A stretch of 64,000 bases of DNA from an uncultured Anaerolinea sp. (GTDB lineage: Bacteria > Chloroflexota > Anaerolineae > Anaerolineales > UBA4823), in contig CAZDAU010000004.1 of assembly GCA_964503625.1 (NCBI GenBank), forward strand, positions 39,964 to 103,963, written 5' to 3'. The translations under genes and the position numbers were made by a program. A model generated the notes under the pieces. That model saw only the letters and a list, made by a program, of their open reading frames with translations, did no database searches and was not told where the DNA came from. This document shows, one piece after another, positions 28,341 through 45,546 of this stretch (the first letter of the stretch is position 1; every line of letters begins with the position of its first letter).

Positions 28341-29009
28341 TTATTCCTCTTTGCGGTAATCGATATGGGCAATGCCAGCCCGCAGGGCATATAAAACCGC
28401 CTGGGTGCGGTTAGAAAGCCCCAGCTTGGCCAGGATGTTGGTGACGTGCGTGCGAACCGTCCGCTCGCTCAGCACCAGGACATCGGCAATCTCCTGGTTG
28501 GTCAAACCCAGGGCCATCTGCTGCAAGATCTCCACCTCCCGATCAGTCAACGCCCCGGCGGTGCTCGTCGCCCCTTCCTCGCCCTGGATTTCTTCCACCA
28601 GCTTGCGGGCGATCTCTGGCCCCAGGACTGGCTTGTTGCGGTAGGTATCCTGGATCGCCTGGAGCAAATCTTGCGAAGAGGTGTCCTTGATTAAATACCC
28701 AATTGCGCCGGCGCGAATGGCAGAGATCACCATGTGATCCTCAGCAAAACTGGTCAGCACCAGAATACGCGCCTGCGGATAGACTTTCTTTATTTCCAGG
28801 GTAGCCTGTACGCCATCCATGCGCGGCATGACCAGGTCCAGCAGAATGACATCCGGCTGCAGGTCTTTGGCCATGTGCACCGCTTCAAGGCCGTCCCCGG
28901 CAACCCCAATCACTTTCATCCCAGGCTCGGCCGAGATCAATGCCTTTAACCCGTCCCGCACCACGGTATGGTCGTCCACAATTAAGATACAAATCGGTCT
29001 CAGCGTCAT
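28341..29009 (-). CDS. NarL/LiaR-family response regulator
   Basis: IVDDH, LLDLVMP; LTDREVEIL...TNQEIA...RTHVTNIL. Confidence 0.93.
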   Translation of the reverse strand: MTLRPICILIVDDHTVVRDGLKALISAEPGMKVIGVAGDGLEAVHMAKDLQPDVILLDLVMPRMDGVQATLEIKKVYPQARILVLTSFAEDHMVISAIRAGAIGYLIKDTSSQDLLQAIQDTYRNKPVLGPEIARKLVEEIQGEEGATSTAGALTDREVEILQQMALGLTNQEIADVLVLSERTVRTHVTNILAKLGLSNRTQAVLYALRAGIAHIDYRKEE

Positions 29010-31698: not shown

Positions 31699-32262
31699 TC
31701 AAGCGGCTGGGGCAGGCTCGGCGGTCTCAGCAACCGGCTCGAGGTTGCCACGGCCATTGCTTTTTTCGCCAGCCGGTCCATCCAATTTTTGCCCGGTCTT
31801 CCTGGCTGCATCGCTGTTCTTTGCCGCCTGTTGTTGAGCCTGGCGGGCGCGGCGATACGCCGGGCTGTAAACAACGATTGCCTCGACAAAGACCTGGCGC
31901 ATTCTCGGATCCTGATCCAGGCTGCCATCAATCAGTTGCGCCAGGTTAAAATCCAGGCTGTCGGCAAATTCTTCCAAGGAGCGCCGAAAGGCCCAGGCTT
32001 CAGATTCCGAGAGGCTGGAAAGCCAGGTTTTGAAATCCTGGGGAAACAGGGCTGCGCCCTGGCCAAGTGCCCAGGCGCGGAAAGCTTCCGTTTCAGCCCG
32101 GCGGTTGAAAAGCCCACGCCAGCGCTCCCCCAGCCACCCAGTCCAGCGTTTGGTGGAAGCAACGGCTCTGCCTGTTGCACCATCCAGACGCTCGCCAAAA
32201 CGGCTAGACGCCAGCAGATAGCCCAGCAGGGCAAATAAAACCAACAGACTAAGCAGGTACAT
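31699..32262 (-). CDS. Hypothetical protein with N-terminal TM helix
   Basis: GGAG 6 nt before ATG; hydrophobic N-terminus ending GYLLASSRF. Confidence 0.7.
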   Translation of the reverse strand: MYLLSLLVLFALLGYLLASSRFGERLDGATGRAVASTKRWTGWLGERWRGLFNRRAETEAFRAWALGQGAALFPQDFKTWLSSLSESEAWAFRRSLEEFADSLDFNLAQLIDGSLDQDPRMRQVFVEAIVVYSPAYRRARQAQQQAAKNSDAARKTGQKLDGPAGEKSNGRGNLEPVAETAEPAPAA

Positions 32263-32274
32263 TCCAGGCTCCGA

Positions 32275-32349
32275 TCAGGATTTGCGGCTTTTGCCCAGCA
32301 AATATCCAACCACAAGTGCAATCAGCACCAAAATGACCAGTTCAAACAT
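32275..32349 (-). CDS. 24-aa single-TM micro-protein (not in ORF track)
   Basis: MFELVILVLIALVVGYLLGKSRKS; GGAGGT 5 nt before ATG; TGTTATAAT at 32405-32397. Confidence 0.7.
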   Translation of the reverse strand: MFELVILVLIALVVGYLLGKSRKS

Positions 32350-32411
32350 ACAACACCTCCAGAGATCAAGATAGCCTATGGATTGACAACATTTGCATTA
32401 TAACACAGCCG

Positions 32412-35255
32412 TCAGGACAAGTTTTTTGCCCGAGCGTTTGCATCGCTTTCAGCCAGCAGGCCGCCATCCAGGGTGAACTTACGCCATTCCGCACTGGCCC
32501 ACAACTCCTGGCGGACCGCCTGTTCAGCCGCCAGCAGGCTGGCATAGCGAGAACCCGGCTGTTTTGCCAGCACTTCCGGCATGCCATCCTCAACGATCCT
32601 GCCGTTTTCGATCACCAGGACACGGGGAAAAGCCAGCGTCTCGCCGACATCGTGGGTGATACAGAGCAGGGTGACGCCATCCCAATGCCGGCGGGCCTGC
32701 TCCAGAAGATTGCGCCGCTTTTCACGGTCCAGGCCGCGGAAAGGCTCATCCAGGATTACCAGGCGGGCCCCAACGCGGAGCATGGCTCTTCCCAGGCGCA
32801 CGCGCTGGCCCTCGCCACCGGAAACCAGGCCGCCTCCTTCGCCCAGGGGGGTCTTCAACCCGTCAGGCAGCCGATCCAGCACATCGTACAGGTCCGCCGA
32901 TTGGATCACTTCGCTCAACGGCCGGGCTTCGCTTTGCTCCATGCCATAGCGTAAATTATCGTACAAGGAGCGGTTCCAGAGCTGCACTGCCGGGTCCACC
33001 CAGGTGGTCTGGCGGCGCAAAGACTGCAGGCTGTTTCCATCCAGGGGCTGGCCATCCACTTGGATGCTACCCTGCGATGGCCGGTGCCAGCCCAAGAGCA
33101 AGCCAACCAGGCTGGATTTGCCTGCGCCTGACGGACCGACGATGGCCAGATGCTCGCCTGGCTGGATGTTCAGATTGATCCCCTCCAGGATAACGTGCCC
33201 GCCCGCTTGCAAGGTCACTTGCTGGATATCGATGCTCACCGGGGCAGAGACGGCTGGCTGAAGCATATCTTTTTGCTTCTCTGGGCTTTGAGACTCTATC
33301 GGCTGCGCCGCCCAGGCTTCTTCCTCATCCGGCGCGGTCAGTGGCTCCAGCAAGCGCAGGACCAAGTTGCGCTGCATGGGATACTGCTGAATCAAATCTG
33401 CCAGCGACTGGCCCAGAGCTGGTAGGCTGAGAGTCCAGTAGAAGAGCAGCAGGATCTCGTTGACATCACCGCCTTTCAAGAGGTAATTGACAATTATCAA
33501 AATGGCAAAGGCAGAGTACATCAAGGCGCCCAGAGCCTGTAAAATTGAGGCCAGGTTGTAGGATTCTCGCCCTGTGCGCACCCATTCATAGAGCTGGGTC
33601 TCGTGCTGACGGCGCATGGCCCGCTCAGCGCCATGGGTGCGCACAGGCACCAGTCCAAGCAGGGCGTCCAGGTAAAAGCGGCTCAAAGCCCCCGTGTGCG
33701 TGCGCAGGCGCAGGTCGCGCTCTTCCAGCAGCGGGCGGCTGGCAAAGGACAGGCCTACGAAGAAGGCCGTGCCCAAGATCGCCAATGGCGCGCTGATCGG
33801 ATCCAGCCAGATCACCCCAATCATGGTCAGGATGAGCTGGAAACCCGTCCGCAACAGGCCCACCCCCAGGTTGGGCAACGAGCGCAGGGCGCGCAGGTCA
33901 TGAGCGCGCTGGGTCATGTCGGAAGTCAGGCGGCTGCGGAAGTAGCGATCACCCAGGCGCGGGATTTTCTCCAGGAAGGCGATCCGCAGGCGGGCCTCCA
34001 GCCGCCGGCCCATGCGCAAAACCGTGGCGCTGATCGGAAATTCCAGCAGCAGAAGCGCCAGGACAAAAGCCAGCAAAGACAGGGAAGCCAGGATCCGCTG
34101 CGAGACCAGGGTCAGGTTCTGGCCAATGCGGATCATCCCCTGGAAAAGCAACGCTTCAATCAACACGCCCAGGGTTGCCAGGAACAAGGAAAGGACCAAC
34201 AAAGCAGGCGTGAGCAGGCCATCCTGGCGCAGGGCTTTCCAGACTTCTCTTTCCGGCCGCTGGACCGGCTCCTTGAGCGCTGCTTCCAGATCGGGGGGCA
34301 GCAAGACAGCCTGCGATATGCCGGCATCTTCTTGCGGGCCAGCCATTGCCGCGGCAGGTTTGCGTCCCAAAATGCGCACAAGCACTGCGCCACGCAAAAG
34401 CAGGTGCTGCAGCGGCTCTGTGCCGCTGGCCTGGGCTTCATTCTCAATAACGGGCAAGACCGACCAATAAGCCGCCGGGATCACCAGGCTCTCTGGGGCC
34501 TGATCTTGCAGCACCGATCCCTGGCGGCTTTCAACTTCGGGGAGAGGGCCAACCAGGTTGAGGCGATAGAAACGCTCCAGCACCCGACCCGCCTCGCTGC
34601 CAGCGAGCAGGCCGCGCGCCCGCACCAGGGAGGCGGTCATGCGCGTGGCTGCGTCCAGGGTGGCCAGGGCGCGCCAGCCAGGATCTTGCAGCGCGTCTTC
34701 AATCAACCGAGAGGCTTCCTGGTCGGCGATTTTTAAATCGGCCATCCGCCGGCGCAATGGCGCCAGCAAGCCTTCCGAACCAGCCCAAGCGCGCCAATCC
34801 TGGACCGGCACCGGAAACGAATGAATGTATAACTCTTGCTGGAAACGCTTCCAGCTTGGCCAGCGCCGTCCGGTAGCCGGATCCATCACCTGCAGCCTGT
34901 TCCCCACCCGGTTCCAGACCACCAGGAAGTGGGTCAATCCACTGGGCCGCTGAACCACCACAATGGCCGGCAGAGCCTGGGCTTCATCGAGCACCAGATG
35001 GTCCGCAGGGAGCATCACCTGTTCCGCCTGCAGGCCAAGCTGGATGGCAATATCTTCAATTGTGTTGATCGAAGTGCCGTCCACATCGGTCTGGCAGGCT
35101 TCGCGCAGGCGCCCGTAGCTCACCGGGATGTTGAAACCCTCCAGCAGGGATTTAAGCGCCGCCGGCCCGCAATCCATCGCTGAGGTCTGTACTACCTCAG
35201 GGGCAAAGAAACGTTGGCCCGGAACTGGCACTTCAAGACGCATGATGTGGGTCAA
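32412..35255 (-). CDS. Peptidase C39-containing ABC exporter (PCAT)
   Basis: QTSAMDCG, THFLVV, VMDP catalytic motifs; TMD; GPSGAGKS, VSGGE, ILDEP, ITHD. Confidence 0.92.
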   Translation of the reverse strand: MTHIMRLEVPVPGQRFFAPEVVQTSAMDCGPAALKSLLEGFNIPVSYGRLREACQTDVDGTSINTIEDIAIQLGLQAEQVMLPADHLVLDEAQALPAIVVVQRPSGLTHFLVVWNRVGNRLQVMDPATGRRWPSWKRFQQELYIHSFPVPVQDWRAWAGSEGLLAPLRRRMADLKIADQEASRLIEDALQDPGWRALATLDAATRMTASLVRARGLLAGSEAGRVLERFYRLNLVGPLPEVESRQGSVLQDQAPESLVIPAAYWSVLPVIENEAQASGTEPLQHLLLRGAVLVRILGRKPAAAMAGPQEDAGISQAVLLPPDLEAALKEPVQRPEREVWKALRQDGLLTPALLVLSLFLATLGVLIEALLFQGMIRIGQNLTLVSQRILASLSLLAFVLALLLLEFPISATVLRMGRRLEARLRIAFLEKIPRLGDRYFRSRLTSDMTQRAHDLRALRSLPNLGVGLLRTGFQLILTMIGVIWLDPISAPLAILGTAFFVGLSFASRPLLEERDLRLRTHTGALSRFYLDALLGLVPVRTHGAERAMRRQHETQLYEWVRTGRESYNLASILQALGALMYSAFAILIIVNYLLKGGDVNEILLLFYWTLSLPALGQSLADLIQQYPMQRNLVLRLLEPLTAPDEEEAWAAQPIESQSPEKQKDMLQPAVSAPVSIDIQQVTLQAGGHVILEGINLNIQPGEHLAIVGPSGAGKSSLVGLLLGWHRPSQGSIQVDGQPLDGNSLQSLRRQTTWVDPAVQLWNRSLYDNLRYGMEQSEARPLSEVIQSADLYDVLDRLPDGLKTPLGEGGGLVSGGEGQRVRLGRAMLRVGARLVILDEPFRGLDREKRRNLLEQARRHWDGVTLLCITHDVGETLAFPRVLVIENGRIVEDGMPEVLAKQPGSRYASLLAAEQAVRQELWASAEWRKFTLDGGLLAESDANARAKNLS

Positions 35256-35746
35256 TCCTGGGGGTTCTGCGGACTGACAGGCAGCTGGCTGCGGTTGAGG
35301 AATTTACCCGAGGTGCGCAAAACCAGCTCTGCAGGCGTGACATATTCCACTTCCACATCCACCTGGCCGGAGATCTCGCCCTGCTGCACATCAACTGGCA
35401 GCCCGCCAGAAAGCACCATGATTTCAACTTGTTCCCCCTCCCGTGGCAAATCCCAGACCACAGCCGAAAGAGTCAGCGCGGGTTGGTCGGGTCCCTGGCT
35501 CAAGCGCAGGATGGCGGGCATTCCAGGGCGCAGGCGTGAGCGGGACTCTTTTGGGAAAGTGACCAGAATTTTTCCGTCGGCGGCCATTTCCACCGAGTTG
35601 CTGATTTCGTACAGCGTCACTTTGGCCAGGAAAAACCACAGGATCAAGGCCAGCATGATGAAGATGGCAAAAACTAAGCCAATGCGCGTGGCACGGAAAC
35701 TATCCAGGCGCAAGGCGCGCATTGAGCGAGAGAATTGAATGGACAC
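35252..35746 (-). CDS. Truncated HlyD-like membrane-fusion/adaptor protein
   Basis: One N-terminal TM; RLRPGMPA and GQVDVEVEYVTPAELVLR beta-barrel-like segments; only 164 aa; stop overlaps PCAT start. Confidence 0.6.
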   Translation of the reverse strand: MSIQFSRSMRALRLDSFRATRIGLVFAIFIMLALILWFFLAKVTLYEISNSVEMAADGKILVTFPKESRSRLRPGMPAILRLSQGPDQPALTLSAVVWDLPREGEQVEIMVLSGGLPVDVQQGEISGQVDVEVEYVTPAELVLRTSGKFLNRSQLPVSPQNPQD

Positions 35747-35766
35747 CCTAATGCTCCATGAGCCAA

Positions 35767-35862
35767 CACTACAATTTGACCAATTATAAATGAGATTTCA
35801 AAGCCACAACCGAAAGATGCGACAAATGACATAGCTAAAACCCATTCCCCCCTGCGACAAAT
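35767..35862. promoter_or_regulatory. Divergent promoter region with TATAAT (minus, 35788-35783) and two TGCGACAAAT boxes
   Basis: TGCGACAAAT at 35818 and 35853; motif set shared with 43854-43959. Confidence 0.6.
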
Positions 35863-35996
35863 TCCTCTTGTCCCTTGTCTGTGCACATGATAAGATTTCA
35901 AGAGACTGAGTGCGGGTGCGGCTTTTGCGCCCACCTGTTTTTTGACTTTCCAACCTGGCAGGTGTTGCCTGCCATTTCCAGCCTGGGACCGCTTGC

Positions 35997-38201
35997 ATGG
36001 CAGCCAGAGAGCCCAATCTTGAACAGATCGCCTGGCCGGTGACCCGTCTGGGTGAGTTAACCGAAAATCTGGCGCGTAAAGCCGGGCTGACTGCCCGGCT
36101 GGTTCAGTTGCCTCAGCCGCCCGACGGTTTGGGCTTATCCAGCGACGCGGAACTCGGCGCCTGGCTGGACAACGCCGCCGGCTACCTGGGGCTGGAAGCG
36201 GAGCCGGTGAGCGCGCAATACGCCGATCTGGACCTTTTGCTCCAGGCCGGCGGCCCGGCGATCCTGAGGCTGCCAGGCACATCTCCGACAGGCGAATCGC
36301 TCGCCGGCCCTGCTTTTGTGGCGCTGGTGCGCGGCGCATCTAACAAGGTTTCCATCCTGTGCCCAGATCTGCGCGTGCGCCGCCTGAACCTGGCAACGCT
36401 GCAGGCCTTGCTCACCCGGCCTTATGACGCTTATCTGGGGGAGCAAATTGATCAACTGCTGGTCGATGCCGATGTGCCGGCGGAACGGCTGCAGCGTGCC
36501 CGGGCGGCTGTTTTGCGCGACCAGCTCGGCCCTCTGCGGATAGAGGCGGGCTGGCTGCTGCGCCTGCCGCCCTCGGCCAGCCTGCACAACCAGTTCCACC
36601 ATGCCGGGGTTTATCGACCGGTCAGGATCATGCTGTTCATGTATTTTATCCAGCAGTTGCTCTCGGTGGCTTCCTGGTTTGTCATCGGCCGGGGAATTTT
36701 CCAGGGCCATTTTGACCTGGGTTGGCTGGCAGCCTGGGCCATCCTGTTGCTCTCATCTATTCCGGTACAAATCGTTGTCAGCGATGCCCAAAGCGAGCTC
36801 TCGATGAGCGCAGGTGCGCTGTTCAAGCAACGGCTGATCCTGGGCACCCTGAAGCTGGATCCAGAAGAAATTCGCCACCAGGGCATGGGCCAGTTTCTGA
36901 ACCGGGTGATGGAATCTGAGGCGGTGGAGATGCTGGCTCTGAGCGGCGGTTTCACTGCCCTGCTCTCATTTATTGAGCTGGGCCTGGCCGTTGTGATCCT
37001 CTTCAATGGCTCTGGCGGAGCTATCAGCGCCGCCAGCCTGGTGATCTGGGTGTTGCTCACCCTGGTGATGCTGTGGCGCTACTATCAAAACAGCCGCGAA
37101 TGGACTGAGGCCTACCGGGAGATGACCAATCACCTGGTGGAGGAGATGGTTGGCCACCGCACCCGCCTGATCCAGCAAGACCCGCGCCGCTGGCATGAAG
37201 ATGAGGATCAGGAATTGGATCGCTATCTTAAGCTCTCCGAAAGCATGGATCAAACAGGTATCGGGATCAGCTCTTTCATCACCCGGGGCTGGATCCTGGT
37301 CGGCCTGGCGGGGATTGCCCTGGCCTATGTGGCGGGCAATCCCACTCCACAATCGCTGGCGATCAGCCTGGGTGGGATGCTGCTGGCCTCGCAAGGCTTG
37401 GGCAAGCTCACCGCCGGAACACAGAGCTTATCCAGCCTGGCCAACGCCTGGCAACAGGTTGGGCCGCTGTTCAAAGCCGCTGCCCGCCCGCGCCAGTTAC
37501 CTGCCCTGGGCTTCGTCCCGCCGGCTCGCGGCCGGATGCCAGACTCATCGGCTGCAGGGCAGGTCCAGACGGCACCTGCTAACGGACAGCAAGCGTTGAT
37601 TCAGGCCAGGGATGTGAGCTTTCGCTACCGGCCGCAAGGCCGGTCGATCTTGCAGGATTGCACCTTACAGATTTACCCTGGAGATCGACTCTTGTTGGAA
37701 GGACCTTCGGGCGGCGGAAAATCCACCCTTGCGGCTGTGCTCACCGGCTTGCGAGCGCCCGAATCCGGCTCGCTTTTGCTCTGGGGCTTCGACCGCCAAT
37801 TGCTTGGCGTGGAGGAATGGCGCAAACGAGTGGTCATGGCGCCCCAATTCCAGGAAAACTACGTGTTTTCTGAGACGCTGGCGTTTAACTTGCTGATGGG
37901 GCGAGGTTGGCCACCTAAACCCGAGGACCTTGAGGAAGCCGAGAGCATTTGCCAGGAACTGGGCCTGGGCGAGGTGCTCCAGCGTATGCCCTCCGGATTC
38001 CAGCAGATGGTCGGCGAGAGCGGCTGGCAGCTTTCGCATGGCGAGCGCAGCCGGCTGTTCATTGCCCGCACCTTGCTGCAGAAAGCCGACCTGATCGTAT
38101 TGGACGAGAGCTTCGGCGCGTTGGACCCCGAGAACCTGGAGCGCGCTTTGCAGTGTGTGCTGCGACGTGCGCCAACTTTGCTGGTCATCGCACACCCATA
38201 G
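35997..38201 (+). CDS. ABC exporter with inactive C39-like domain (probable heterodimer partner)
   Basis: LGLEAEPV...PAI aligns with the C39 domain but the Cys/His/Asp motifs are absent; GPSGGGKST, LSHGE, VLDES; ends at IAHP. Confidence 0.85.
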   Translation: MAAREPNLEQIAWPVTRLGELTENLARKAGLTARLVQLPQPPDGLGLSSDAELGAWLDNAAGYLGLEAEPVSAQYADLDLLLQAGGPAILRLPGTSPTGESLAGPAFVALVRGASNKVSILCPDLRVRRLNLATLQALLTRPYDAYLGEQIDQLLVDADVPAERLQRARAAVLRDQLGPLRIEAGWLLRLPPSASLHNQFHHAGVYRPVRIMLFMYFIQQLLSVASWFVIGRGIFQGHFDLGWLAAWAILLLSSIPVQIVVSDAQSELSMSAGALFKQRLILGTLKLDPEEIRHQGMGQFLNRVMESEAVEMLALSGGFTALLSFIELGLAVVILFNGSGGAISAASLVIWVLLTLVMLWRYYQNSREWTEAYREMTNHLVEEMVGHRTRLIQQDPRRWHEDEDQELDRYLKLSESMDQTGIGISSFITRGWILVGLAGIALAYVAGNPTPQSLAISLGGMLLASQGLGKLTAGTQSLSSLANAWQQVGPLFKAAARPRQLPALGFVPPARGRMPDSSAAGQVQTAPANGQQALIQARDVSFRYRPQGRSILQDCTLQIYPGDRLLLEGPSGGGKSTLAAVLTGLRAPESGSLLLWGFDRQLLGVEEWRKRVVMAPQFQENYVFSETLAFNLLMGRGWPPKPEDLEEAESICQELGLGEVLQRMPSGFQQMVGESGWQLSHGERSRLFIARTLLQKADLIVLDESFGALDPENLERALQCVLRRAPTLLVIAHP

Positions 38202-38229
38202 ACGCGCTTACTCAGCTTGAATTGACCAC

Positions 38230-38238
38230 TGATATAAT
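38230..38238 (+). promoter_or_regulatory. Extended -10 promoter element
   Basis: TGATATAAT about 30 nt upstream of ATG 38268; AAAGGA RBS between them. Confidence 0.55.
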
Positions 38239-38267
38239 ACACAAGATTGGTAAAGGAAACTTACACG

Positions 38268-38450
38268 ATGAAAATTCGCACCGGATTGAAAGCAGGCCAG
38301 GGGTTAGGAGACACCGTTGCCGACCTGGCTCACCTGACCGGCATGGACCAGTTGGCCAGGGTATATGAACAAACCACCGGAAAAAGCTGCGGCTGCGATC
38401 AGCGCCGACAGACGCTCAACCAGCTATTTCCATTCAGACAGAGCGCTTGA
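38268..38450 (+). CDS. 60-aa peptide, candidate PCAT substrate
   Basis: MKIRTGLKAG-QGLGDTVADLAHLTGMDQLARVYEQTTGKSCGCDQRRQTLNQLFPFRQSA; own RBS and extended -10. Confidence 0.75.
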   Translation: MKIRTGLKAGQGLGDTVADLAHLTGMDQLARVYEQTTGKSCGCDQRRQTLNQLFPFRQSA

Positions 38451-38463
38451 CTGAAAACCAGGC

Positions 38464-39483
38464 ATGCCCTTTAGAAGGCTGATTTTCCTTATCTTTGTGG
38501 TTGCCCTGCTGGCCGGGTGTCAGTCTGGGTCGCAACGCAATTGCCCGGATCAGTGTATCAGTGTCAATCTGAATAGCGCCAATTTGCGCGACCAGGATTT
38601 CAGCAACGCCCAGATGATGAATGCAAATTTGACCAAGGCCAACCTGGTTGAAGCCGACCTGAGCAACGCCAACCTGACTGGCGCCACACTCTCGCAAGCA
38701 GACATGGAAAGCGCAAACCTGACCGGGGCGCGCCTGGTTGGGAGCGACCTTTCGCTGGCTAACCTGCGCAATGCCTACCTGGACCAGGCTGATCTGAGCG
38801 GCGCTGATTTGAGCGGGGTCTCGATGATCCGCGTTGACCTGACCAGGACCTTGATGAACGGCGTCCGGCTGGGCGGCGCAGAAATGATTGGCTGCAACCT
38901 GGGCGGTGTGAACCTGAACGGCGTCGAGATGTATGAAGCCAACCTGAGCGGCGCCCTGCTGAATGACAGCAGTCTGAACGGGAGTGTGCTCAGCCTGTCC
39001 AATTTTAACGGCGCCGACCTGCGCCGGGCGCGACTCTCTGGCTCGTGGATAAACCTCGGCCAACTGGTGGGCGCAAACCTGCAAAGCGCCGACCTCACCG
39101 GCAGTACCTTCTTTGGCACCAATCTGACTGGCGCTGATCTTTCCAACGCCAAACTCAACGGCGCTTTTCTGGCCGGGACAGACCTGAGTGGTGCAGACCT
39201 GCGCGGAGCGGACCTGACCGGAGCAATCCTGGAACTGCCGTATCCCCCAAATGCTCCGGCAGGCTTCTCTTATGAAAACCTGACCGGCAGCGAATTTTTA
39301 CAGGCGCTTAACCAGACCGAAATGAGCCGCATCCTGGCCGACCGACGAGTGGCTGCCCTGACCGAGGTGCGCCTGAAGCCATACCTGCATAACGCTATCC
39401 TGCAAGGCGTAATCTACGATGAGAACACGGCCTGGCCCCTGGGCTTTGATATCCCCTCTTCGGCTATCTACCAGGGAAAGTGA
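38464..39483 (+). CDS. Pentapeptide-repeat lipoprotein
   Basis: LLAGC lipobox; many A(D/N)LXX repeats; CPDQC N-cap; YDENTAWPLGF C-cap. Confidence 0.9.
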   Translation: MPFRRLIFLIFVVALLAGCQSGSQRNCPDQCISVNLNSANLRDQDFSNAQMMNANLTKANLVEADLSNANLTGATLSQADMESANLTGARLVGSDLSLANLRNAYLDQADLSGADLSGVSMIRVDLTRTLMNGVRLGGAEMIGCNLGGVNLNGVEMYEANLSGALLNDSSLNGSVLSLSNFNGADLRRARLSGSWINLGQLVGANLQSADLTGSTFFGTNLTGADLSNAKLNGAFLAGTDLSGADLRGADLTGAILELPYPPNAPAGFSYENLTGSEFLQALNQTEMSRILADRRVAALTEVRLKPYLHNAILQGVIYDENTAWPLGFDIPSSAIYQGK

Positions 39484-41315
39484 CTTTGGACATGGTTGAT
39501 AAATCACCTGCTCAGAAAAAGAAATTTGTCTGGCGTGAATGGCTTGATGAAGCCGCGGTGCTGCTGGTGGTCCTGGCAGTCATTGGCAGCATTTATCTGT
39601 TTCGCAACCTGAGCTGCCCGCCGCGCTGCACCAATGCCAACCTGACTGGCAGGGATTTCCGTGACAAACCGCTGGACGGCGCTGACTTCACCAATGCCAT
39701 CCTGAATGGCGCGGATTTCACCGGCGCATCCCTGCGCGGTGCCAAACTTAACGGGGCCGACCTGAGCGGCTCGGTCCTGGTCTCCTCAAACCTGGCTGAG
39801 GCCGATTTTACCGACGCCATCCTGTTGGGCGCTCAACTGAACGGCGCCAACCTGACCGGGGCAACCCTGCAGAACACCAACCTGAGCAGCGCCGACCTCT
39901 CCAGCGCCATTCTCAAAGATGTCGACCTGACCCAAGATGTTCAGCTCACCGCCATCCGGTTGAACAAGGCCAACCTGATCGGGGCTAAGCTGAATGGGGC
40001 CAGGCTGAGCGGGGCGCTGATCACGGATGCCAATTTAAACGGGGCCGATCTTTCCGGCGCTGAACTGAGCGGGGTGAACCTGGAAGGTTCCGAAATGTAC
40101 GGCGCCAACCTGACCAAAGCAAACTTGCTCGGTGCCACCCTGGACCGAGCAAACCTGGTGGGGGCATCCTTGCCTGGAGCCAACCTGGCCGGCGCCAGCT
40201 TTTTCAACGCTGACCTCTCCGGATCTGATCTGACCAATGCTGACCTGACCGGGATTGTAAGCACCTCCGGGTATTTCGATGGCTCGATCATGACCGGCGC
40301 AAAGCTCAACCGGGCCCGGTTTTATGGCTCCGGGTTGGCCGGGGTGGTGCTGGAAAACGCCGACCTGACGGACGCCCGCTTTGATATTTACGAGCAAAAC
40401 GGCCAAATCACGCGCACTAATCTGGATGGTTCCCTGTTAAACCGGTCCGATCTCTCCGGCAGTTACCTGGCCGGCGCAACCCTTGCCGGGGCAGATTTGA
40501 CCCAGGCAGACCTGAGCCGCAGCGACTCGGCACCGGTCACGATTGTCGACAACCGCCAGATCGGTGGGATTACCCAAACCCTGAAAGCCGTGCTCTACGG
40601 CGCTAACCTTTCTGGAGCCGATTTCCAGGCTGCCAAGCTGGCAAACGCTGATTTGCGTGGCCTGAACCTTTCCAGGGCTAACTTCCGCCATGCTGATTTA
40701 CGCGGCGCTGACCTGAGCGCCGTGAACATGTCTGGAGCCGACCTGCGAGGCGCAAACATGGCAGGCGCTGACCTGGCTAACACCGACATGCTTGGCGCCA
40801 GGCTTGCCGGGGCCAACCTTTCTGGCACCGACCTCTCGGAAGTCAACCTGGATGGCGCTGCCCTGTGGAGCAGCACGCCGGTGACATTCACCGCCGACCT
40901 GACCTACGCAGAGCTGTTTCGTTTCCTGGCGCAAAGCGATTGCTTTAATGGGGATTTTCTGGTGGCGAATAACGGCACAGTAGCCAACGTGCCGGTGCGC
41001 TTTGATGAAGATGCAGGCAGCAACTTTTACTACAGCGAGATCTGGCGCAACGCCCGCGCCTATGTCTGCGCGGCCGACCTGAGCGATACCCGAATGTGGG
41101 GAAAACGTCTCTTGCCAACCTCGCTGGCTGGCGTGAACCTCACTGGCGCCGATCTGCGCTTCACCAATCTTCAGAATGTAAAATTTCAGGAAGAAATCAA
41201 GCTGGAAGACAACCTGAGCTATCTTTTAAAGGCGAACCTGGGCAAAATCGTTTACAACAGCTTCACGTCCTGGCCGAGCGATTTCATCCCCCCAGCCTCG
41301 GCCTCTACAGAGTAG
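39480..41315 (+). CDS. TM-anchored pentapeptide-repeat protein
   Basis: N-terminal TM; CPPRC; long A(D/N)LXX tracts; YNSFTSWPSDF C-cap. Confidence 0.9.
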   Translation: MTLDMVDKSPAQKKKFVWREWLDEAAVLLVVLAVIGSIYLFRNLSCPPRCTNANLTGRDFRDKPLDGADFTNAILNGADFTGASLRGAKLNGADLSGSVLVSSNLAEADFTDAILLGAQLNGANLTGATLQNTNLSSADLSSAILKDVDLTQDVQLTAIRLNKANLIGAKLNGARLSGALITDANLNGADLSGAELSGVNLEGSEMYGANLTKANLLGATLDRANLVGASLPGANLAGASFFNADLSGSDLTNADLTGIVSTSGYFDGSIMTGAKLNRARFYGSGLAGVVLENADLTDARFDIYEQNGQITRTNLDGSLLNRSDLSGSYLAGATLAGADLTQADLSRSDSAPVTIVDNRQIGGITQTLKAVLYGANLSGADFQAAKLANADLRGLNLSRANFRHADLRGADLSAVNMSGADLRGANMAGADLANTDMLGARLAGANLSGTDLSEVNLDGAALWSSTPVTFTADLTYAELFRFLAQSDCFNGDFLVANNGTVANVPVRFDEDAGSNFYYSEIWRNARAYVCAADLSDTRMWGKRLLPTSLAGVNLTGADLRFTNLQNVKFQEEIKLEDNLSYLLKANLGKIVYNSFTSWPSDFIPPASASTE

Positions 41316-41342
41316 GCTCCCGGCCGGTCAACGGGAGGTATC

Positions 41343-42101
41343 ATGACTCAAACGATCACTGTGGCAAATCAGAAGGGCGGGGTGGGTAAGACCACAACCG
41401 CGGTCAACCTGGCGCATGGCCTGGTCTTGCAGGGTAAACGCGTCTTGCTCGTCGATCTGGACCCGCAGGGCCAGTGCGCCACGATCCTGGGATTAAAGCC
41501 CGAGCCGGGCACATTCAACCTGTTAGTGGCTGAATCCCCGTTCAAGCAAGTGACGCGCCTGACCGATCGGAAAGGTCTGCTGGTCATATTGGGAGACCGG
41601 AAGACCTCAACTGCGCAGACCGTGCTCAACGTCCAGCGCACGCCCATTTCGTTCATCCACAGCAAGCTGGTCGTCCCGGCCCAAAAGGATGGACTGGATT
41701 ACATTGTCATCGATACTTCTCCCAGTGTGGGGGAATTGCAAGAACAGGCGCTGTGGGCTGCGGATGGCGTACTGATCCCTTGCGCCGTCGATTACCTGGC
41801 GACCGATGGGGTGTACAACATTGCCCAAACCCTCAAGCGCATCCAGGAGGAGTACAAATGGCAGGGCCGTGTTCTGGGCATCTTGCCCACATTCTATGAT
41901 ACGGTTACCCGAGAGAGTAAAGCCACGTTACAGGACCTGCAAAAGCGCTTTTCCGGCGCCATGCTCAGCCCCATTCACCGTGCCACGATCCTGCGCGAAT
42001 GCGCCGTAGAGGGCAAAACAATTTTCGAGATGGCCCCCGAAAGCCGAGCTGCAAAACAATACCTGGGGCTGGTGGAACATGTCTTGAATTGGGGAGGTTA
42101 G
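41343..42101 (+). CDS. ParA/Soj-family ATPase (no parB nearby)
   Basis: NQKGGVGKTTT, VDLDPQG, IDTSP; GGGAGGT RBS. Confidence 0.9.
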   Translation: MTQTITVANQKGGVGKTTTAVNLAHGLVLQGKRVLLVDLDPQGQCATILGLKPEPGTFNLLVAESPFKQVTRLTDRKGLLVILGDRKTSTAQTVLNVQRTPISFIHSKLVVPAQKDGLDYIVIDTSPSVGELQEQALWAADGVLIPCAVDYLATDGVYNIAQTLKRIQEEYKWQGRVLGILPTFYDTVTRESKATLQDLQKRFSGAMLSPIHRATILRECAVEGKTIFEMAPESRAAKQYLGLVEHVLNWGG

Positions 42102-42130
42102 AAAGCTGATGCTATGAATATTAATGCAAT

Positions 42131-42170
42131 AAGACCAGACTATCTTAACCCAGACAGCCTGGTCTTTTAA
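42131..42170. terminator. Hairpin between convergent genes
   Basis: AAGACCAG (42131-42138) / CTGGTCTT (42159-42166) followed by TTAATTT. Confidence 0.45.
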
Positions 42171-42190
42171 TTTACCTGGTTGAGCAAAAC

Positions 42191-42475
42191 TTATTCGCTG
42201 GTTTCGGACTCTGCCTCTGAACTCTTGCGGCGGCTGGGCTGCTTCTCGGCGGGTTGCGGGCTTGCATCCACCGCTGAGCCTTCGATCACCTCGCTGGCTG
42301 GTTGCTCTTTCTTCTGACGAAAAGTCCTGCGCCACCATCCCTCGGCCTTGTCCGCCGCACCGCGGGATACATCAGCCACCTTCTCTGTTGCGCTGTCGAT
42401 CGGCTTGCTGAATCTGCTGCGCGCAACAAAATAACCAATCACCCCCGCAATTAGCAGAAGAACAAGTAATTGCAT
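42191..42475 (-). CDS. 94-aa protein with N-terminal TM helix
   Basis: AAGGAG RBS; TM ending GYFVARSRF; TGTTATAAT at 42538-42530. Confidence 0.75.
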   Translation of the reverse strand: MQLLVLLLIAGVIGYFVARSRFSKPIDSATEKVADVSRGAADKAEGWWRRTFRQKKEQPASEVIEGSAVDASPQPAEKQPSRRKSSEAESETSE

Positions 42476-42560
42476 GTTTCTCTCCTTCCAAAGCTAAACT
42501 TTGATATATTCAGGATGCTAGACGGCAGAATTATAACATACTCCTCTTTGCCAGCGCCGC

Positions 42561-43721
42561 TCAAGGGGTTGGCGAGGGGGCTATGGTGGGCGTGGGGGTG
42601 GGTGTACTGATCACAGGAGGAATGGTCAATGTGTTGGTGATAGTGCCTGTTATGGCCGTCGAGGGCGCACCCACTGTCCCCAGATCGCCGGTCAGGTCGG
42701 GCACCGACAGAATGAAGGGCGCATCGTTGGGCAGCAGCATCACCCGCAGGTTGGGCGAGAGCTTCTCAATATAGCGATACAGCAACAGCGATGGGTCACG
42801 TTGCAATGCCTGGTTGATCAACCGCAAGGCGTCGGAGTCTGCTTTGGCCTGCAGCACCGTCGCCGTAGCTTTGGCCTGGGCTTCGCGCTCGATTGCAGCT
42901 GCCCGGCCTTCAGCCTCAATCTTTTGCCGGTCGCGCTCACCCTCAGCCAGCTTGCGTATTTGCTCAGCCTGGTATTCGCGCTGGATGCGTTCTTGCTCAG
43001 CGACCTGTTTCTGCTCGATGGCAGACGAGAACGCCTGCGAGAAGGCAATATTGCGCAGCAAAAAGCGGTCTAGGATGAAGCCCTTATCCCCAAGAGCGCC
43101 TCGCAGCAGATCTTCCAGGTTAGCCTCCAGGTTCTTGCGTCGGGAGCTGTTAATCTCCTCGGCGGTGAACTGAGAGACCTCCGTGCGGATCACCCCGCGC
43201 ATCACTGGGCGGATGAAGTCTTCCACGTATCGGTTCTGCAAGTCCGTGTGCACCCGGATGACCTCGTTGGGGTCAATCCGGTAGATGATTGAGCTGTCCA
43301 GATAAACCACCTGGCCATCCGAGGTTCGGGCAGCAATCGCGTCATTCCCCGATTTCGCCCCTTCCTGGGCATCGGAGGACATGGTATAGGTCTGCCAGTA
43401 GATCGGATAGCGCACCACCCGCTCCGCCAGCGGCACAATGGCCCGCAAACCCGAGCGCAGTGGCTGTTCGCGATAACCACTGGGACTGGTGATCGAGATC
43501 ACCACCCCGGCTTCTTGCGGCTCAATGAACACCAGGCTGGCGCTGAGCATTGACAGGCCGACAGCCACCAACAGACCTACCAAAACTCGGAAGGAGAGAA
43601 AAGACCGCAAGGCCTGGCGCATCCCACCTGCCCGGTACGCATGGAGCAACACCGAAAACAGGAAGACCACAAACCAGACCCAGGCTAAGACAGCAATGAC
43701 AGCGAGCAGTTGATCCAACAT
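42561..43721 (-). CDS. SPFH/prohibitin-family membrane protein with Pro/Thr-rich tail
   Basis: Two N-terminal TMs; ARTSDGQVVYLD, LLRNIAF, AIEQKQVAEQ, coiled AE repeats. Confidence 0.88.
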   Translation of the reverse strand: MLDQLLAVIAVLAWVWFVVFLFSVLLHAYRAGGMRQALRSFLSFRVLVGLLVAVGLSMLSASLVFIEPQEAGVVISITSPSGYREQPLRSGLRAIVPLAERVVRYPIYWQTYTMSSDAQEGAKSGNDAIAARTSDGQVVYLDSSIIYRIDPNEVIRVHTDLQNRYVEDFIRPVMRGVIRTEVSQFTAEEINSSRRKNLEANLEDLLRGALGDKGFILDRFLLRNIAFSQAFSSAIEQKQVAEQERIQREYQAEQIRKLAEGERDRQKIEAEGRAAAIEREAQAKATATVLQAKADSDALRLINQALQRDPSLLLYRYIEKLSPNLRVMLLPNDAPFILSVPDLTGDLGTVGAPSTAITGTITNTLTIPPVISTPTPTPTIAPSPTP

Positions 43722-43804
43722 AGATCAATTTCCAATTCTTTTGAACGATTCGTCCGTATTTTTCCACATCAACTAGTGTTCAGTCAATGAGAAAATGATG
43801 GATT

Positions 43805-43860
43805 TGTAGTGACGGCTTTAGCCGTTACAGGCGCAAAAAACGACGAAAGTCGTCACTACA
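43805..43860 (-). promoter_or_regulatory. Structured 5' leader candidate (branched hairpin)
   Basis: 10-bp outer IR TGTAGTGACG/CGTCACTACA enclosing two 5-bp tetraloop hairpins. Confidence 0.45.
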
Positions 43861-43872
43861 GCCCATCGAAAT

Positions 43873-43959
43873 CAATTTGACTGACTACCAGTTATGTTGG
43901 TCTATTATAAATGAGTAAAACCGATTTCAACGCTGGATCGAATGAATTTGCGACAAATG
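43873..43959 (-). promoter_or_regulatory. Promoter sharing motifs with 35767-35828
   Basis: TATAAT (43909-43904), TTGAAA, ATTTG-cga-CAAAT palindrome. Confidence 0.6.
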
Positions 43960-44022: not shown

Positions 44023-45546
44023 TCAGCGTGAAAGTGGGATGCTGACCTCGCAGACTTGCTCATTAAACTCGCTGCCAGGACGCAAGACAAATGTCCATCC
44101 CTGGCCTGCCGGCGCCACATCGAAGGCCAACGCTGTACGCCATGTCTCCCCCGGCTGGATCAGATCCTGGTAGAGGTTCGAAGGCTGCTCAATGTAAAGG
44201 TAGCCGGTTGCGGCCGCATGCGGGGAATAGGTTACGATCTCACCATCCACCTCACCCTGCACAAAATAATCCTGATCCCAAATCTGGATCGGGAAGTTGC
44301 TCTGGTTTGCCAGCTCCAGGCGCAGGGTCAAAAAAGTGCCCGACGCATGGTGCTCAAACAGGTCTTTTTGGAACCGGGGCGAGTCAATCAAACGAGCGGT
44401 GAGGGCCTGGCCACAGGCGTGCGGAAAGGTGTATCCAGGACCAGGCGTTGGGCCAGCCTGGGTTGGCTCGGGGAGCGGCGTGACGGGGATGTAGGTGGCG
44501 GCTGGCGTTGGCAGGCTGGCCTGCGTAAACGCAAATTGACTGATCAGCGCATTGTAGATGTAATTTTGCCACAGGGCTACCATGTCATTGTGATGATATT
44601 CATGCGAGCGAAAAGTCTGCAAGATCATTCGCCCACCCAGACACGAAACCAGCAAACCACGATCCTGAGTCCAGGAGCGGTTGACATCGGCTAAAATGAG
44701 CGGATCCCCAGAGGGCGCACCGATGACCGGTTCAATTTGGAGCAGGTCGCCCACGTCCCCGCGCCAGAGCGGGGCAGCGTTGCGCAAGCCGGAGGCCAGA
44801 TCATTGGGCTGATTGAAAATCGGGTGGGCCGGGTCGGTCCAATAGAAGACCCTCATCTCCGGCTCATACCAGTCACTCTGCACAGCCACACCGCAGCGAG
44901 CCAGCAAGGGCCTCACCCGGCCATCTGGGGCGCTATCCAGGTCCCAGCTTTCGAGGATCACGGCTGCCCCGCGCCCCAGGTGATCATCGAGATATTCATA
45001 AAGCTCCCCGCCAAACTCGCGCTCTGCCTCCGCCGAAGCGATGATCAGATCCCACTTTTCCCCCGAAAGCAGTTGCGACTTGAACCAACCCTTGGCGCTA
45101 CCCACATCCAGGTAAAAATAACCAGCCTCATCCAGAGCCTCCTTGACCAGCCTTATCTGTCGTGAGGCCGACATGTCTTCAAAAAGCAAGATCCGGGCCG
45201 AATTCAGCAGGCGCTCTTCGGCCAGATTTGGCTCTGTCATGGTATGGGTAACGATGATCAGTGGAGTGGGGCTGGCCGCTTCAAGAGTGCCTGTCGCGTC
45301 TGGGGTGACCAACAGTTGTGCCTGAGGCGGCAATGTCTGTGAGCCAACTCCCAGGGCAATGGCAGAAACCGTCTGGGCAAGGCTGGTCTGTTGGGCATTG
45401 ACGGCTGAAGCAGTGGCCTGCAACCCATCCTGTGCAGCAAACAAGTTGCACGAGATCAGGAGCAGGACCAAACTGATAAGCCAGATAAGAAAAGCGGCGC
45501 GGTGCAATGAATAGCGATTCACGGCGAACCTGGGGCGATGTCCCAA
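44023..45546 (-). CDS. Lipoprotein of unknown function, C-terminal DUF4352-like Ig-fold segment
   Basis: LLLISCNLF lipobox; Thr/Pro-rich linkers; FLTLRLELAN...TALAFDV. Confidence 0.6.
   Translation of the reverse strand: MGHRPRFAVNRYSLHRAAFLIWLISLVLLLISCNLFAAQDGLQATASAVNAQQTSLAQTVSAIALGVGSQTLPPQAQLLVTPDATGTLEAASPTPLIIVTHTMTEPNLAEERLLNSARILLFEDMSASRQIRLVKEALDEAGYFYLDVGSAKGWFKSQLLSGEKWDLIIASAEAEREFGGELYEYLDDHLGRGAAVILESWDLDSAPDGRVRPLLARCGVAVQSDWYEPEMRVFYWTDPAHPIFNQPNDLASGLRNAAPLWRGDVGDLLQIEPVIGAPSGDPLILADVNRSWTQDRGLLVSCLGGRMILQTFRSHEYHHNDMVALWQNYIYNALISQFAFTQASLPTPAATYIPVTPLPEPTQAGPTPGPGYTFPHACGQALTARLIDSPRFQKDLFEHHASGTFLTLRLELANQSNFPIQIWDQDYFVQGEVDGEIVTYSPHAAATGYLYIEQPSNLYQDLIQPGETWRTALAFDVAPAGQGWTFVLRPGSEFNEQVCEVSIPLSR

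Follow-up and report, generated by a model that had tools for sequence, protein, structure and literature searches.

Is the 60-amino-acid (aa) peptide encoded beside two divergent ATP-binding cassette (ABC) transporter genes of an uncultured Anaerolinea sp. the cargo of these transporters, and by what signal would it be recognized? The genes lie in a 64,000-nucleotide stretch of contig CAZDAU010000004.1 (the window), where open reading frame (ORF) calls and searches of Pfam and NCBIfam outline a compact gene block at 28.3-43.96 kb. A response regulator, a histidine kinase, a 187-aa transmembrane (TM) protein, the transporter ABC1 and a 164-aa mini-HlyD adaptor are encoded leftward; the transporter ABC2, the peptide, two pentapeptide-repeat proteins (PRPs) and ParA are encoded rightward, out of a 250-bp divergent region; and the genes for a 94-aa TM protein and an SPFH protein converge on the rightward unit from the right. 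All elements listed in a first-pass annotation of this DNA were recovered at or near the positions assigned to them there. We consider it likely that the block is a dedicated module for secretion, of the kind built around peptidase-containing ABC transporters (PCATs), that is adapted to cells with one membrane and that would cleave and export the peptide. A wider proposal, for and against which we see about equal chances, is that the first ten residues of the peptide represent an unrecognized minimal export and cleavage signal of a strand type, which defines a phylum-spanning group of heterodimeric protease-ABC exporters (active C39 domain, dead C39 domain and HlyD), and that the Anaerolineales exporter is the core of a membrane module of 10-12 genes (with SPFH, ParA and surface PRPs) delivering a conserved 50-aa CGC domain to the cell surface.

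Co-occurrence of the leader motif and the exporter

The peptide gene starts at the ATG at position 38268, not at the TTG at 38247, and occupies positions 38268-38450 of the plus strand. Its first ten codons (38268-38297) encode the proposed leader MKIRTGLKAG, detected both by a regular expression and by a position-specific scoring matrix (PSSM), and the remainder (38298-38450) encodes the proposed mature 50-aa peptide. Relatives of the exporter were collected from a genome set with a single representative of each GTDB species; the query was the first 300 residues of ABC1, which are specific to the family. At least 588 ABC1-type relatives were found, and 80 loci (L001-L080) were kept for locus analysis; the window proteins were mapped onto these loci and all locus ORFs were clustered, which yielded the synteny data used throughout.

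The regular expression M-K-[VI]-[KR]-[TS]-x-[VIL]-K-[AS]-G, derived from the N-terminus of the Anaerolineales peptide and anchored at start codons, identified 106 small ORFs in 42 of the 80 loci, from many phyla, and none in reversed control sequences. With the PSSM, at a threshold of at least 14 bits, 206 matches were obtained in 58 loci, and again none in the reversed controls; its single match in the entire window is the peptide itself (26.2 bits). In the reciprocal direction, metagenomes were searched with the exact DNA pattern of MKVKTNVKAG, which retrieved more than 120 contigs. Those of at least 4 kb (37 contigs) were checked for the exporter, and 15 of them code for ABC1, ABC2 or HlyD, as judged by the N-terminal domains specific to this family. 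Thus the co-occurrence of homologous transporter pairs with KAG-leader peptides, expected by the first-pass annotation, holds both ways, and it is because leader and exporter associate in both directions that we regard the block as a dedicated export module.

The leader is found on cargo of several kinds. Tandem ORFs carry MKVKTKVKAG followed by EGNGFDPHGQPKP, MKVKTNVKAG followed by AGGAFPSG, or MKVKSSVRSG followed by SVNWN, and the variants MKTKTNVKAG and MKISTNVKAG also occur. Leader-tagged mini-proteins include a LysM domain (Pfam, 2e-7) and a glutaredoxin-like fold; since LysM acts outside the cell, LysM cargo with this leader argues for export. In four loci (L035, L046, L049 and L080) the motif is placed between the recognition leader PFFARYLEGQDFP and one or more TxKYPSDxDE cores. 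The presence of two MvdD-type ATP-grasp genes beside these precursors (confirmed by Pfam in L035 and L046), together with the PFFARFL/KYPSD precursors themselves, identifies the four loci as microviridin-type clusters. The precursors have the layout PFFARYLEGQDFP-(E/Q)VKTNVKAG-core(s) with KYPSDxDE; the clusters are located at L035 14924-17987, L046 8392-8601 and 14930-17557, L049 15670-18832, and L080 15064-18303, and the hosts are a Clostridia metagenome-assembled genome (MAG), Blastocatellia, Isosphaeraceae and Phycisphaeraceae.

In the tag, hydrophobic or small residues (V-8, T-6, V-4, A-2) take turns with basic residues (K-9, K-7, K-3), which gives a strand-like pattern. It deviates from the PCAT leader rule (GG, GA or GS at the end; hydrophobic residues at -4, -7 and -12) in that it ends with AG or SG, its hydrophobic residues are confined to -4 and -8, and it comprises ten residues. 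The known transporters ComA and LahT recognize an amphipathic-helix leader with hydrophobic positions -4, -7 and -12 (PMC10885120). Cleavage would most likely occur after Gly10. A cut after [AS]-G is favored because an indel-prone linker directly follows [AS]G in the peptide alignment and residues 1-12 are unstructured in an AF2 model (of low confidence, pLDDT 56), and because the residues that follow KAG in the microviridin-type precursors correspond to the usual short stretch before TxKYPSD.

Several arrangements of leader-tagged genes were observed beyond these. Tandem arrays consist of 4-10 tiny ORFs (15-36 aa), each with its own leader and with short tails including xGxGxDPNG, SRIWRPxG and FRVTPWSLNIW (L040 12720-14003; L065 15319-16098 and 8242-8326; L069 8334-8583; L074 8095-8429; L042 8916-9323; L060 8397-9808); a Ser/Thr protein kinase gene adjoins the array in L040. 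Multi-unit precursors with up to about nine repeats of [LKVKSxVKAG][4-13-aa variable core][NHNQTxxxG] were found at L039 5234-7490 and L067 3032-4960, next to TPR and Ser/Thr-kinase genes, the hosts being a Blastocatellia MAG and a 'Heliomicrobium' MAG; the NHNQT spacer suggests a possible second processing step. Other Anaerolineales loci have two to five additional cargo genes with the leader, located past the SPFH gene or within the divergent region (L009 261/468; L013 6914; L014 529; L017 935; L018 1605/9136; L020 496-1221; L021 171-752/9387; L023 497/9209; L025 13809/14210). These encode a helical family of about 59 aa, Cys peptides with YYPDKSG repeats, a LysM protein and a glutaredoxin-like protein. 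The window has one cargo gene only, and a 507-aa protein (44023-45546) is encoded at the position of the extra cargo.

Conservation of the gene block

The entire block is syntenic in about 20 Anaerolineales genomes, which indicates that its arrangement is not due to chance. The closest public relative is the MAG 'Chloroflexi bacterium RBG_16_57_11', with about 84-89% protein identity. In the other phyla, with Acidobacteriota, Planctomycetota, Desulfobacterota, Rhodothermales and clostridial MAGs among them, only HlyD, ABC1 and ABC2 are kept: clustering of the ORFs of all 80 loci revealed no other gene conserved in distant phyla, additional clusters being mostly shadow ORFs. ABC1 and ABC2 are neighbors in more than 50 loci. 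As had been noted, the island has no modifying enzymes, inasmuch as no LanM, radical-SAM, YcaO or ATP-grasp gene was found within the block by Pfam and NCBIfam.

Five loci, namely L034 (Desulfonema magnum, NZ_CP061800.1, 627140-647934) and L038, L043, L063 and L068 (Parabeggiatoa and Desulfobacterales MAGs), encode ABC1 with no ABC2 within 10 kb. A short HlyD is present in L034 only, and a leader ORF was found in none of the five; their ABC1 proteins score closer to the Anaerolineae ABC1 than the acidobacterial ABC1 does.

The predicted heterodimer and its adaptor

ABC1 (32412-35255, minus strand) consists of a C39 peptidase domain, an insert of about 190 aa, a transmembrane domain (TMD) and a nucleotide-binding domain (NBD), with matches to the Pfam families C39, ABC_membrane and ABC_tran. 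The Peptidase_C39 match has an E-value of 3.9e-20, and the catalytic residues Q23, C29, H109 and D125 are conserved in 69 homologs, in agreement with the catalytically intact C39-ABC described in the first-pass annotation. The TMD and NBD are those of a type I ABC exporter on one chain, and PCAT1 chains match residues 364-897. By analogy with homologs, translation probably begins at position 35243, with the ATG of MRLEVPV... ABC2 (35997-38201, plus strand) has an inactive C39-like domain, a TMD and an NBD that ends after the H-loop.

The ATP-site and catalytic motifs were aligned in 69 ABC1 and 50 ABC2 homologs. In ABC1, Walker A and Walker B (ILDEP) are kept and the signature VSGGEGQR is near-canonical, whereas the Q-loop (WVDPA) has no Gln; in ABC2, Walker A, Walker B and the Q-loop are canonical and the signature deviates (LSHGERSR). 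Hence the site formed by the ABC1 core and the ABC2 signature is degenerate and doubly non-canonical, whereas the one formed by the Walker and Q motifs of ABC2 and the VSGGEGQR of ABC1 is a consensus site, and this complementarity holds throughout the aligned homologs of both proteins. From the complementary motifs we infer that ABC1 and ABC2 form an obligate heterodimer, in which one ATP site is of the consensus type and the other is degenerate; this lends support to the heterodimeric exporter proposed earlier.

The N-terminal domain of ABC2, about 135 residues, aligns with the C39 domain of ABC1 (hhalign probability 81%, E 1.2e-5), and the best PDB match of its AF2 model (pLDDT 82) in a Foldseek search is the PCAT1 peptidase domain. 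The top matches (7n87, PCAT1 chains, 3b79 and 6mpz) have weak E-values, 1e-3 and weaker, but are consistent; below the best match rank other PCAT1 chains, a C39-like domain from Vibrio and LahT. Not a single Cys or His is conserved in the domain. Structural modeling and sequence comparison thus support a C39 fold devoid of catalytic residues, that is, the dead C39-like domain that had been suggested for the second ABC protein. Only hhalign and AF2 with Foldseek recovered this fold: a sequence-profile search of the PDB with the alignment of the ABC2 N-terminal domain gave nothing meaningful, and a homolog search with the same alignment returned just eight partial proteins.

At its other end (38187-38201), ABC2 stops right behind the H-loop: the last residues are VIAHP in 45 of the 50 aligned homologs, and four of the remaining five have their terminus at this position too, with a conservative substitution or a change of the final residue (VITHQ, VIAHR twice, and VIAHS). 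Its NBD is about 43-45 residues shorter than ordinary NBDs, and its alignment to the TIGR03797 model breaks off about 43 positions short of the model end. We know of no precedent for an NBD that ends at the H-loop.

The insert of ABC1 (residues ~150-345; region 32800-33400 of the window), which separates the C39 domain from the first TM helix, is conserved as well, with the residues W154, R155, W157, D201, R205, Y263 and W264. Its counterpart in ABC2 (residues 132-189) is shorter and is modeled by AF2 as a helical hairpin and a strand.

The 164-aa protein (35252-35746, minus strand), which has no Pfam match, is composed of a TM segment and a C-terminal barrel. In a two-block phmmer alignment, the tail, the TM segment and the first strand (residues 1-58) correspond to the N-terminus of the adaptors of about 400 aa encoded in related diderm loci, and residues 60-160 correspond to the C-terminal HlyD_3 barrel of these full-length adaptors, which match HlyD_3 and Biotin_lipoyl_2 in Pfam. 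Judging from these alignments to both ends, the tiny HlyD-like gene of the first-pass annotation does encode a truncated derivative of HlyD, without the middle ~230 residues (lipoyl and alpha-hairpin part). Among the features of the HlyD family it has the TM anchor and the C-terminal barrel, and the lipoyl domain and the alpha-hairpin are missing. Such a reduction would fit a cell with no outer-membrane partner to reach.

The peptide and alternative explanations of its role

The Anaerolineales peptides share the consensus MKVRTGlKAG-(1-8 variable residues)-GLGDxVAD..h.TG.D.lA..YE..TGK.CGC..R..LN. By profile search, positions 11-58 belong to a widespread domain of about 48 aa, with 1980 representative clusters at E <= 1e-3, that is unmatched by any Pfam, NCBIfam or PHROG model. 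Its fullest form, GLGD..TG.D..A..Y...TGK.CGC..R...LN..PY, was seen in the window (38298-38450), L081 2980-3168, L082 2980-3150 and P0176-P0287. The domain is present in phages (Microcystis phage Mel-JY01 and a Caudoviricetes genome), at the C-terminus of proteins of 100-160 aa, and at the N-terminus of glycosyltransferase-like and fiber-like proteins. The ten residues at the start of the peptide occur only in the exporter-linked subfamily. An extended -10 box, TGATATAAT (38230-38238, plus strand), precedes the peptide ATG by 25-35 nt in most of the Anaerolineales loci, so the peptide gene has its own conserved promoter, as had been claimed, which fits an abundantly made cargo.

The distribution of the domain bears on whether the peptide is exported at all. 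It could be a cytoplasmic accessory or regulator of the transporter, docking for example on the shortened NBD of ABC2, with the true cargo encoded elsewhere in the genome. Occurrence of the GLGD-CGC domain in phages and N-terminally on glycosyltransferase-like proteins suggests a cytoplasmic role of this domain elsewhere, and the position of the peptide gene, always after ABC2, and the shortening of ABC2 after the H-loop would suit such a partner. We nevertheless find this improbable: ABC2 is shortened in all phyla, including those without the 60-aa peptide; the N-terminal decapeptide is absent from the phage and other homologs, yet is present on unrelated cargo (LysM, microviridin-type precursors and ORFs of 15-30 aa); and the window has no second leader ORF. 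The same distribution, with homologous domains in phage proteins and enzyme fusions, speaks against a class-II-bacteriocin-like weapon that kills competitors, with the PRPs and small TM proteins acting as self-immunity. The core is conserved end to end across about 30 lineages (mean column identity 62%, no hypervariable region), the peptide is hydrophilic, neither amphipathic-cationic nor hydrophobic, and ParA, SPFH and a kinase/regulator pair are atypical of bacteriocin loci. Thus we see little chance for a bacteriocin, even with the strong promoter of the peptide gene, the co-inheritance of membrane proteins with it, and the fact that PCATs classically export bacteriocins (PMC10885120).

Finally, the peptide might serve as a cell-cell signal, sensed through the adjacent kinase and NarL-type regulator acting on the GCGACAAAT boxes, in a ComC/ComDE-like autoinduction circuit. 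PCAT-exported pheromones provide the precedent (PMC10885120, PMC7595303), the kinase and the regulator are syntenic in at least 14 loci, and the operator-like boxes are common to three promoters. However, the kinase has GAF and PAS domains and no convincing TM segment, so it is predicted to be cytoplasmic, which argues against direct sensing of an external peptide; a folded domain of 50 aa is large for a pheromone; and the kinase/regulator pair is missing in many peptide-bearing loci. Accordingly, we rate a signaling role as quite unlikely.

Several points weigh against the secretion module itself. To our knowledge, the tag is shorter than every characterized double-glycine leader. A leader ORF was not found within reach in 22 of the 80 loci, many of which are short contigs. 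The PSSM was trained on the same 80 loci, to which neither the regular expression nor the metagenome test was fitted. The occurrence of the core domain in phage and glycosyltransferase-like proteins, already mentioned, belongs here too, as does the fact that synteny is the sole source of the roles given to ParA, SPFH, the PRPs and the TM proteins. Lastly, the leader is devoid of the hydrophobic -7 and -12 positions required by ComA and LahT (PMC10885120).

With these reservations, secretion of the peptide by the paired transporters is the explanation we prefer, and it may proceed as follows. ABC1, with the active C39 domain, and ABC2, with the inactive one, would pair as a heterodimer, and the 60-aa peptide would be transcribed from its own strong promoter. 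The exporter would recognize the tag MKIRTGLKAG by its beta-strand-like alternating pattern, and not by the usual amphipathic helix; the C39 domain of ABC1, perhaps aided by the dead domain of ABC2, would bind the leader strand; and the ABC1 protease would cut after Ala9-Gly10, with export of the 50-aa product. The mini-HlyD would replace the full adaptor used by relatives with an outer membrane. The companion proteins (ParA, the SPFH scaffold, the two small TM proteins and the two surface PRPs) probably place or organize the machine in the membrane.

Comparison with known secretion systems

The closest known design is the NHLP/Nif11 cassette, comprising an HlyD-like protein (TIGR03794), a peptidase-ABC protein (TIGR03796) and an ABC protein without peptidase (TIGR03797) (Haft et al. 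2010, PMC2887384). The window has the same three-gene design (adaptor, C39-ABC and a second ABC without active peptidase), these models are the best NCBIfam matches for ABC1, and in both systems the cargo has a small-residue cleavage motif. In contrast, the scores of ABC1 (197 bits against a cut-off of 853) and ABC2 (122 against 709) are far below the family cut-offs, which rules out NHLM membership; the cargo tag is ten residues long (KVKTxVKAG), as opposed to 70 residues or more in NHLP/Nif11 leaders; and the window ABC2 retains a dead C39-fold domain and has no NBD tail, and the adaptor has 164 aa. The first-pass annotation regarded the system as a candidate for an undescribed one. This is borne out for the leader and for the Anaerolineales companion genes, but neither for the three-gene design, known from NHLP/Nif11, nor for the transporter family, which serves microviridin-type clusters elsewhere.

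An inactive C39-like domain on an ABC exporter, along with an HlyD-family adaptor, is also a feature of HlyB/HlyD, and in HlyB this domain binds the substrate (ref. 32 of PMC10986499). In the window, however, the subunit with the C39-like domain is paired with an active C39 subunit, the cargo signal is N-terminal and proposed to be cleaved, and the adaptor has no lipoyl/hairpin part. TM287/288, BmrCD and TmrAB are heterodimeric ABC exporters with one consensus and one non-canonical nucleotide site, where, as in ABC1 and ABC2, complementary motifs of the two half-transporters make one degenerate site; unlike the window pair, they have no protease or C39-like domains and process no peptide. We know of no counterpart in exporters of the TM287/288 type to the ABC2 NBD ending at the H-loop.

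The homodimeric PCATs (PCAT1, ComA, LahT, CvaB) resemble the window system in the fusion of a Cys/His C39 protease to an ABC exporter and in the expected cut after two small residues with a hydrophobic residue at -4. They differ from it in that the window transporter appears to be a heterodimer with one degenerate ATP site, in that its leader is ten residues long and has no helical -7/-12/-15 hydrophobic pattern (PMC10885120), and in the insert of about 190 aa between the C39 domain and the TMD of ABC1. A C39 peptidase transporter and an HlyD homolog have been described for some microviridin (graspetide) clusters with class II precursors (PMC7823629), and the same transporter family adjoins the PFFARFL/KYPSD precursors and the two MvdD-type ATP-grasp genes in the four loci described above. 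The window, by contrast, has no ATP-grasp gene, PFFARFL leader or KYPSD core, and its cargo is an unmodified-looking 50-aa domain. Similar in kind is HetC of Nostoc PCC 7120, a PCAT from a filamentous bacterium that acts on something other than a classic bacteriocin (PMC10986499). Orthology with HetC was rejected: HetC contains a cNMP-binding domain, and no adaptor is encoded next to it (PMC10986499), and no cNMP domain was found by Pfam in the window ABC proteins.

In the open-access literature we found no description of the KVKTxVKAG tag, of the pairing of a dead with a live C39 domain, or of the Anaerolineales companion set; full-text searches for the leader motif strings and for combinations of SPFH, ParA, pentapeptide and ABC gave nothing relevant, sequences printed only in figures being beyond the reach of such searches. 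Scans with Pfam, NCBIfam, PHROGs, PADLOC and Rfam assigned no family to the leader, the peptide core, the mini-HlyD or the small TM proteins, and PADLOC gave generic ATPase matches only, the block fitting no system-specific model of anti-phage defense. The window module is one member of a large, apparently uncharacterized variant of PCAT secretion.

Should the ten residues indeed direct export, no shorter leader would be known for any protease-ABC exporter; the tag would be read differently from double-glycine leaders and would be a compact tool for secretion engineering. A sequence search for the motif could then expose a large hidden secretome, made up of tiny peptides, multi-unit precursors and mini-proteins, in phyla such as Acidobacteriota, Chloroflexota and Planctomycetota, and would provide a mining handle for signaling-size peptides, multi-core precursors and microviridin-type protease inhibitors in mostly uncultured phyla. 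The pairing of live and dead C39 domains, the H-loop-ended NBD and the 164-aa adaptor constitute a natural model for the division of labor between protease-like domains, which would also show how little of HlyD a single-membrane cell needs. The conserved link with SPFH, ParA and surface PRPs offers a testable case of membrane scaffolding around an exporter.

Companion genes

The two PRPs fit the pentapeptide-repeat family with tandem A(D/N)LXX repeats. PRP339 (339 aa; 38464-39483, plus strand; Pentapeptide 1.3e-57) has a signal peptide with an LAGC lipobox and is a predicted lipoprotein, and PRP611 (611 aa; 39480-41315, plus strand; Pentapeptide 1.2e-94) has one N-terminal TM anchor after a Lys-rich stretch. 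Both are predicted to face outward, consistent with the extracytoplasmic location assigned to them initially. The peptide and the pentapeptide-repeat genes co-occur in 21 of 22 loci, and it is this shared phyletic pattern, together with the predicted orientation, that makes the PRPs the best candidates, at low confidence, for extracellular partners of the mature peptide.

The next gene encodes a ParA/MinD-type ATPase (41343-42101, plus strand; AAA_31 and CbiA) with the deviant Walker A motif KGGVGKT. Its AAA_31 match has an E-value of 3e-36, and its score of 110 bits is below the ParA_partition cut-off of 180. As no ParB gene adjoins it, and no partner gene (ParB or MinE) was found nearby, the designation as an orphan ParA appears correct. 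In L026, L028 and L032, the parA gene is situated between ABC1 and ABC2. The SPFH/Band-7 protein (42561-43721, minus strand; Band_7 6.1e-35) has two N-terminal TM segments and a Pro/Thr-rich tail; its gene is linked with the exporter in 23 loci, including a Desulfovibrionaceae MAG, and the linkage of SPFH and ParA persists in other loci of the Anaerolineae and in one Desulfovibrionaceae MAG. On the basis of this linkage, ParA and SPFH probably organize or position the exporter.

The single-TM proteins encoded at the two ends of the block, of 187 aa (31699-32262, minus strand; N-terminal TM segment) and 94 aa (42191-42475, minus strand), proved to be paralogs, as noticed in the first-pass annotation: they share 33% identity over 60 aa (BLASTP E 4e-9) and fall into one cluster, represented in 19 loci.

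Regulation

An ordered motif set, CAATTTGAC / ATTATAAATGAG / GATTTCAA / TGCGACAAATG, occurs at 35772-35828 in the divergent promoter region (35772-35901) and again upstream of the SPFH gene (43873-43959), and is conserved in the nearest relatives (L001, L004 and L006 for the former region; L001, L002 and L004 for the latter). The sharing of motifs between the two regions had been reported in the first-pass annotation. On the minus strand, CATTTGTCGCA-N26/36-CTCATTTATAAT precedes both the mini-HlyD/ABC1 unit and the SPFH unit, CTCATTTATAAT being the putative -10 box of the former. A putative promoter of ABC2 on the plus strand reads TTGTCC-17-TGaTAAGAT. Two TGCGACAAAT boxes are located at 35818 and 35853, and a TGCGACAAAT box abuts the -35 box of the ABC2 promoter; the SPFH upstream region has TATAAT at 43909-43904 (minus strand) and TGCGACAAATG at 43949. 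The transcription units thus share a GCGACAAAT box and a -10 motif, implying possible common control, and the conservation of these promoter motifs, along with synteny, supports the suggested co-regulation of the exporter with membrane-scaffold genes.

A candidate binder of the shared boxes is the NarL/LuxR-type response regulator (28341-29009, minus strand; Response_reg and GerE), which adjoins the block in at least 14 Anaerolineales loci. The soluble GAF-rich histidine kinase (29044-31557, minus strand; HisKA_3/HATPase_c) is encoded next to it and is syntenic in 14 loci. The possibility that the shared upstream motifs constitute a small ORF was rejected, as they are in different reading frames at the two sites.

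The 5' region of the SPFH gene (43740-43870) contains an insertion of about 130 bp that L001, the closest relative, does not have. Two inverted repeats are nested in it (43805-43826/43839-43860 and 43771-43787/43877-43893), and the insertion might represent a mobile or hairpin element of small size, or else a structure of the 5' untranslated region.

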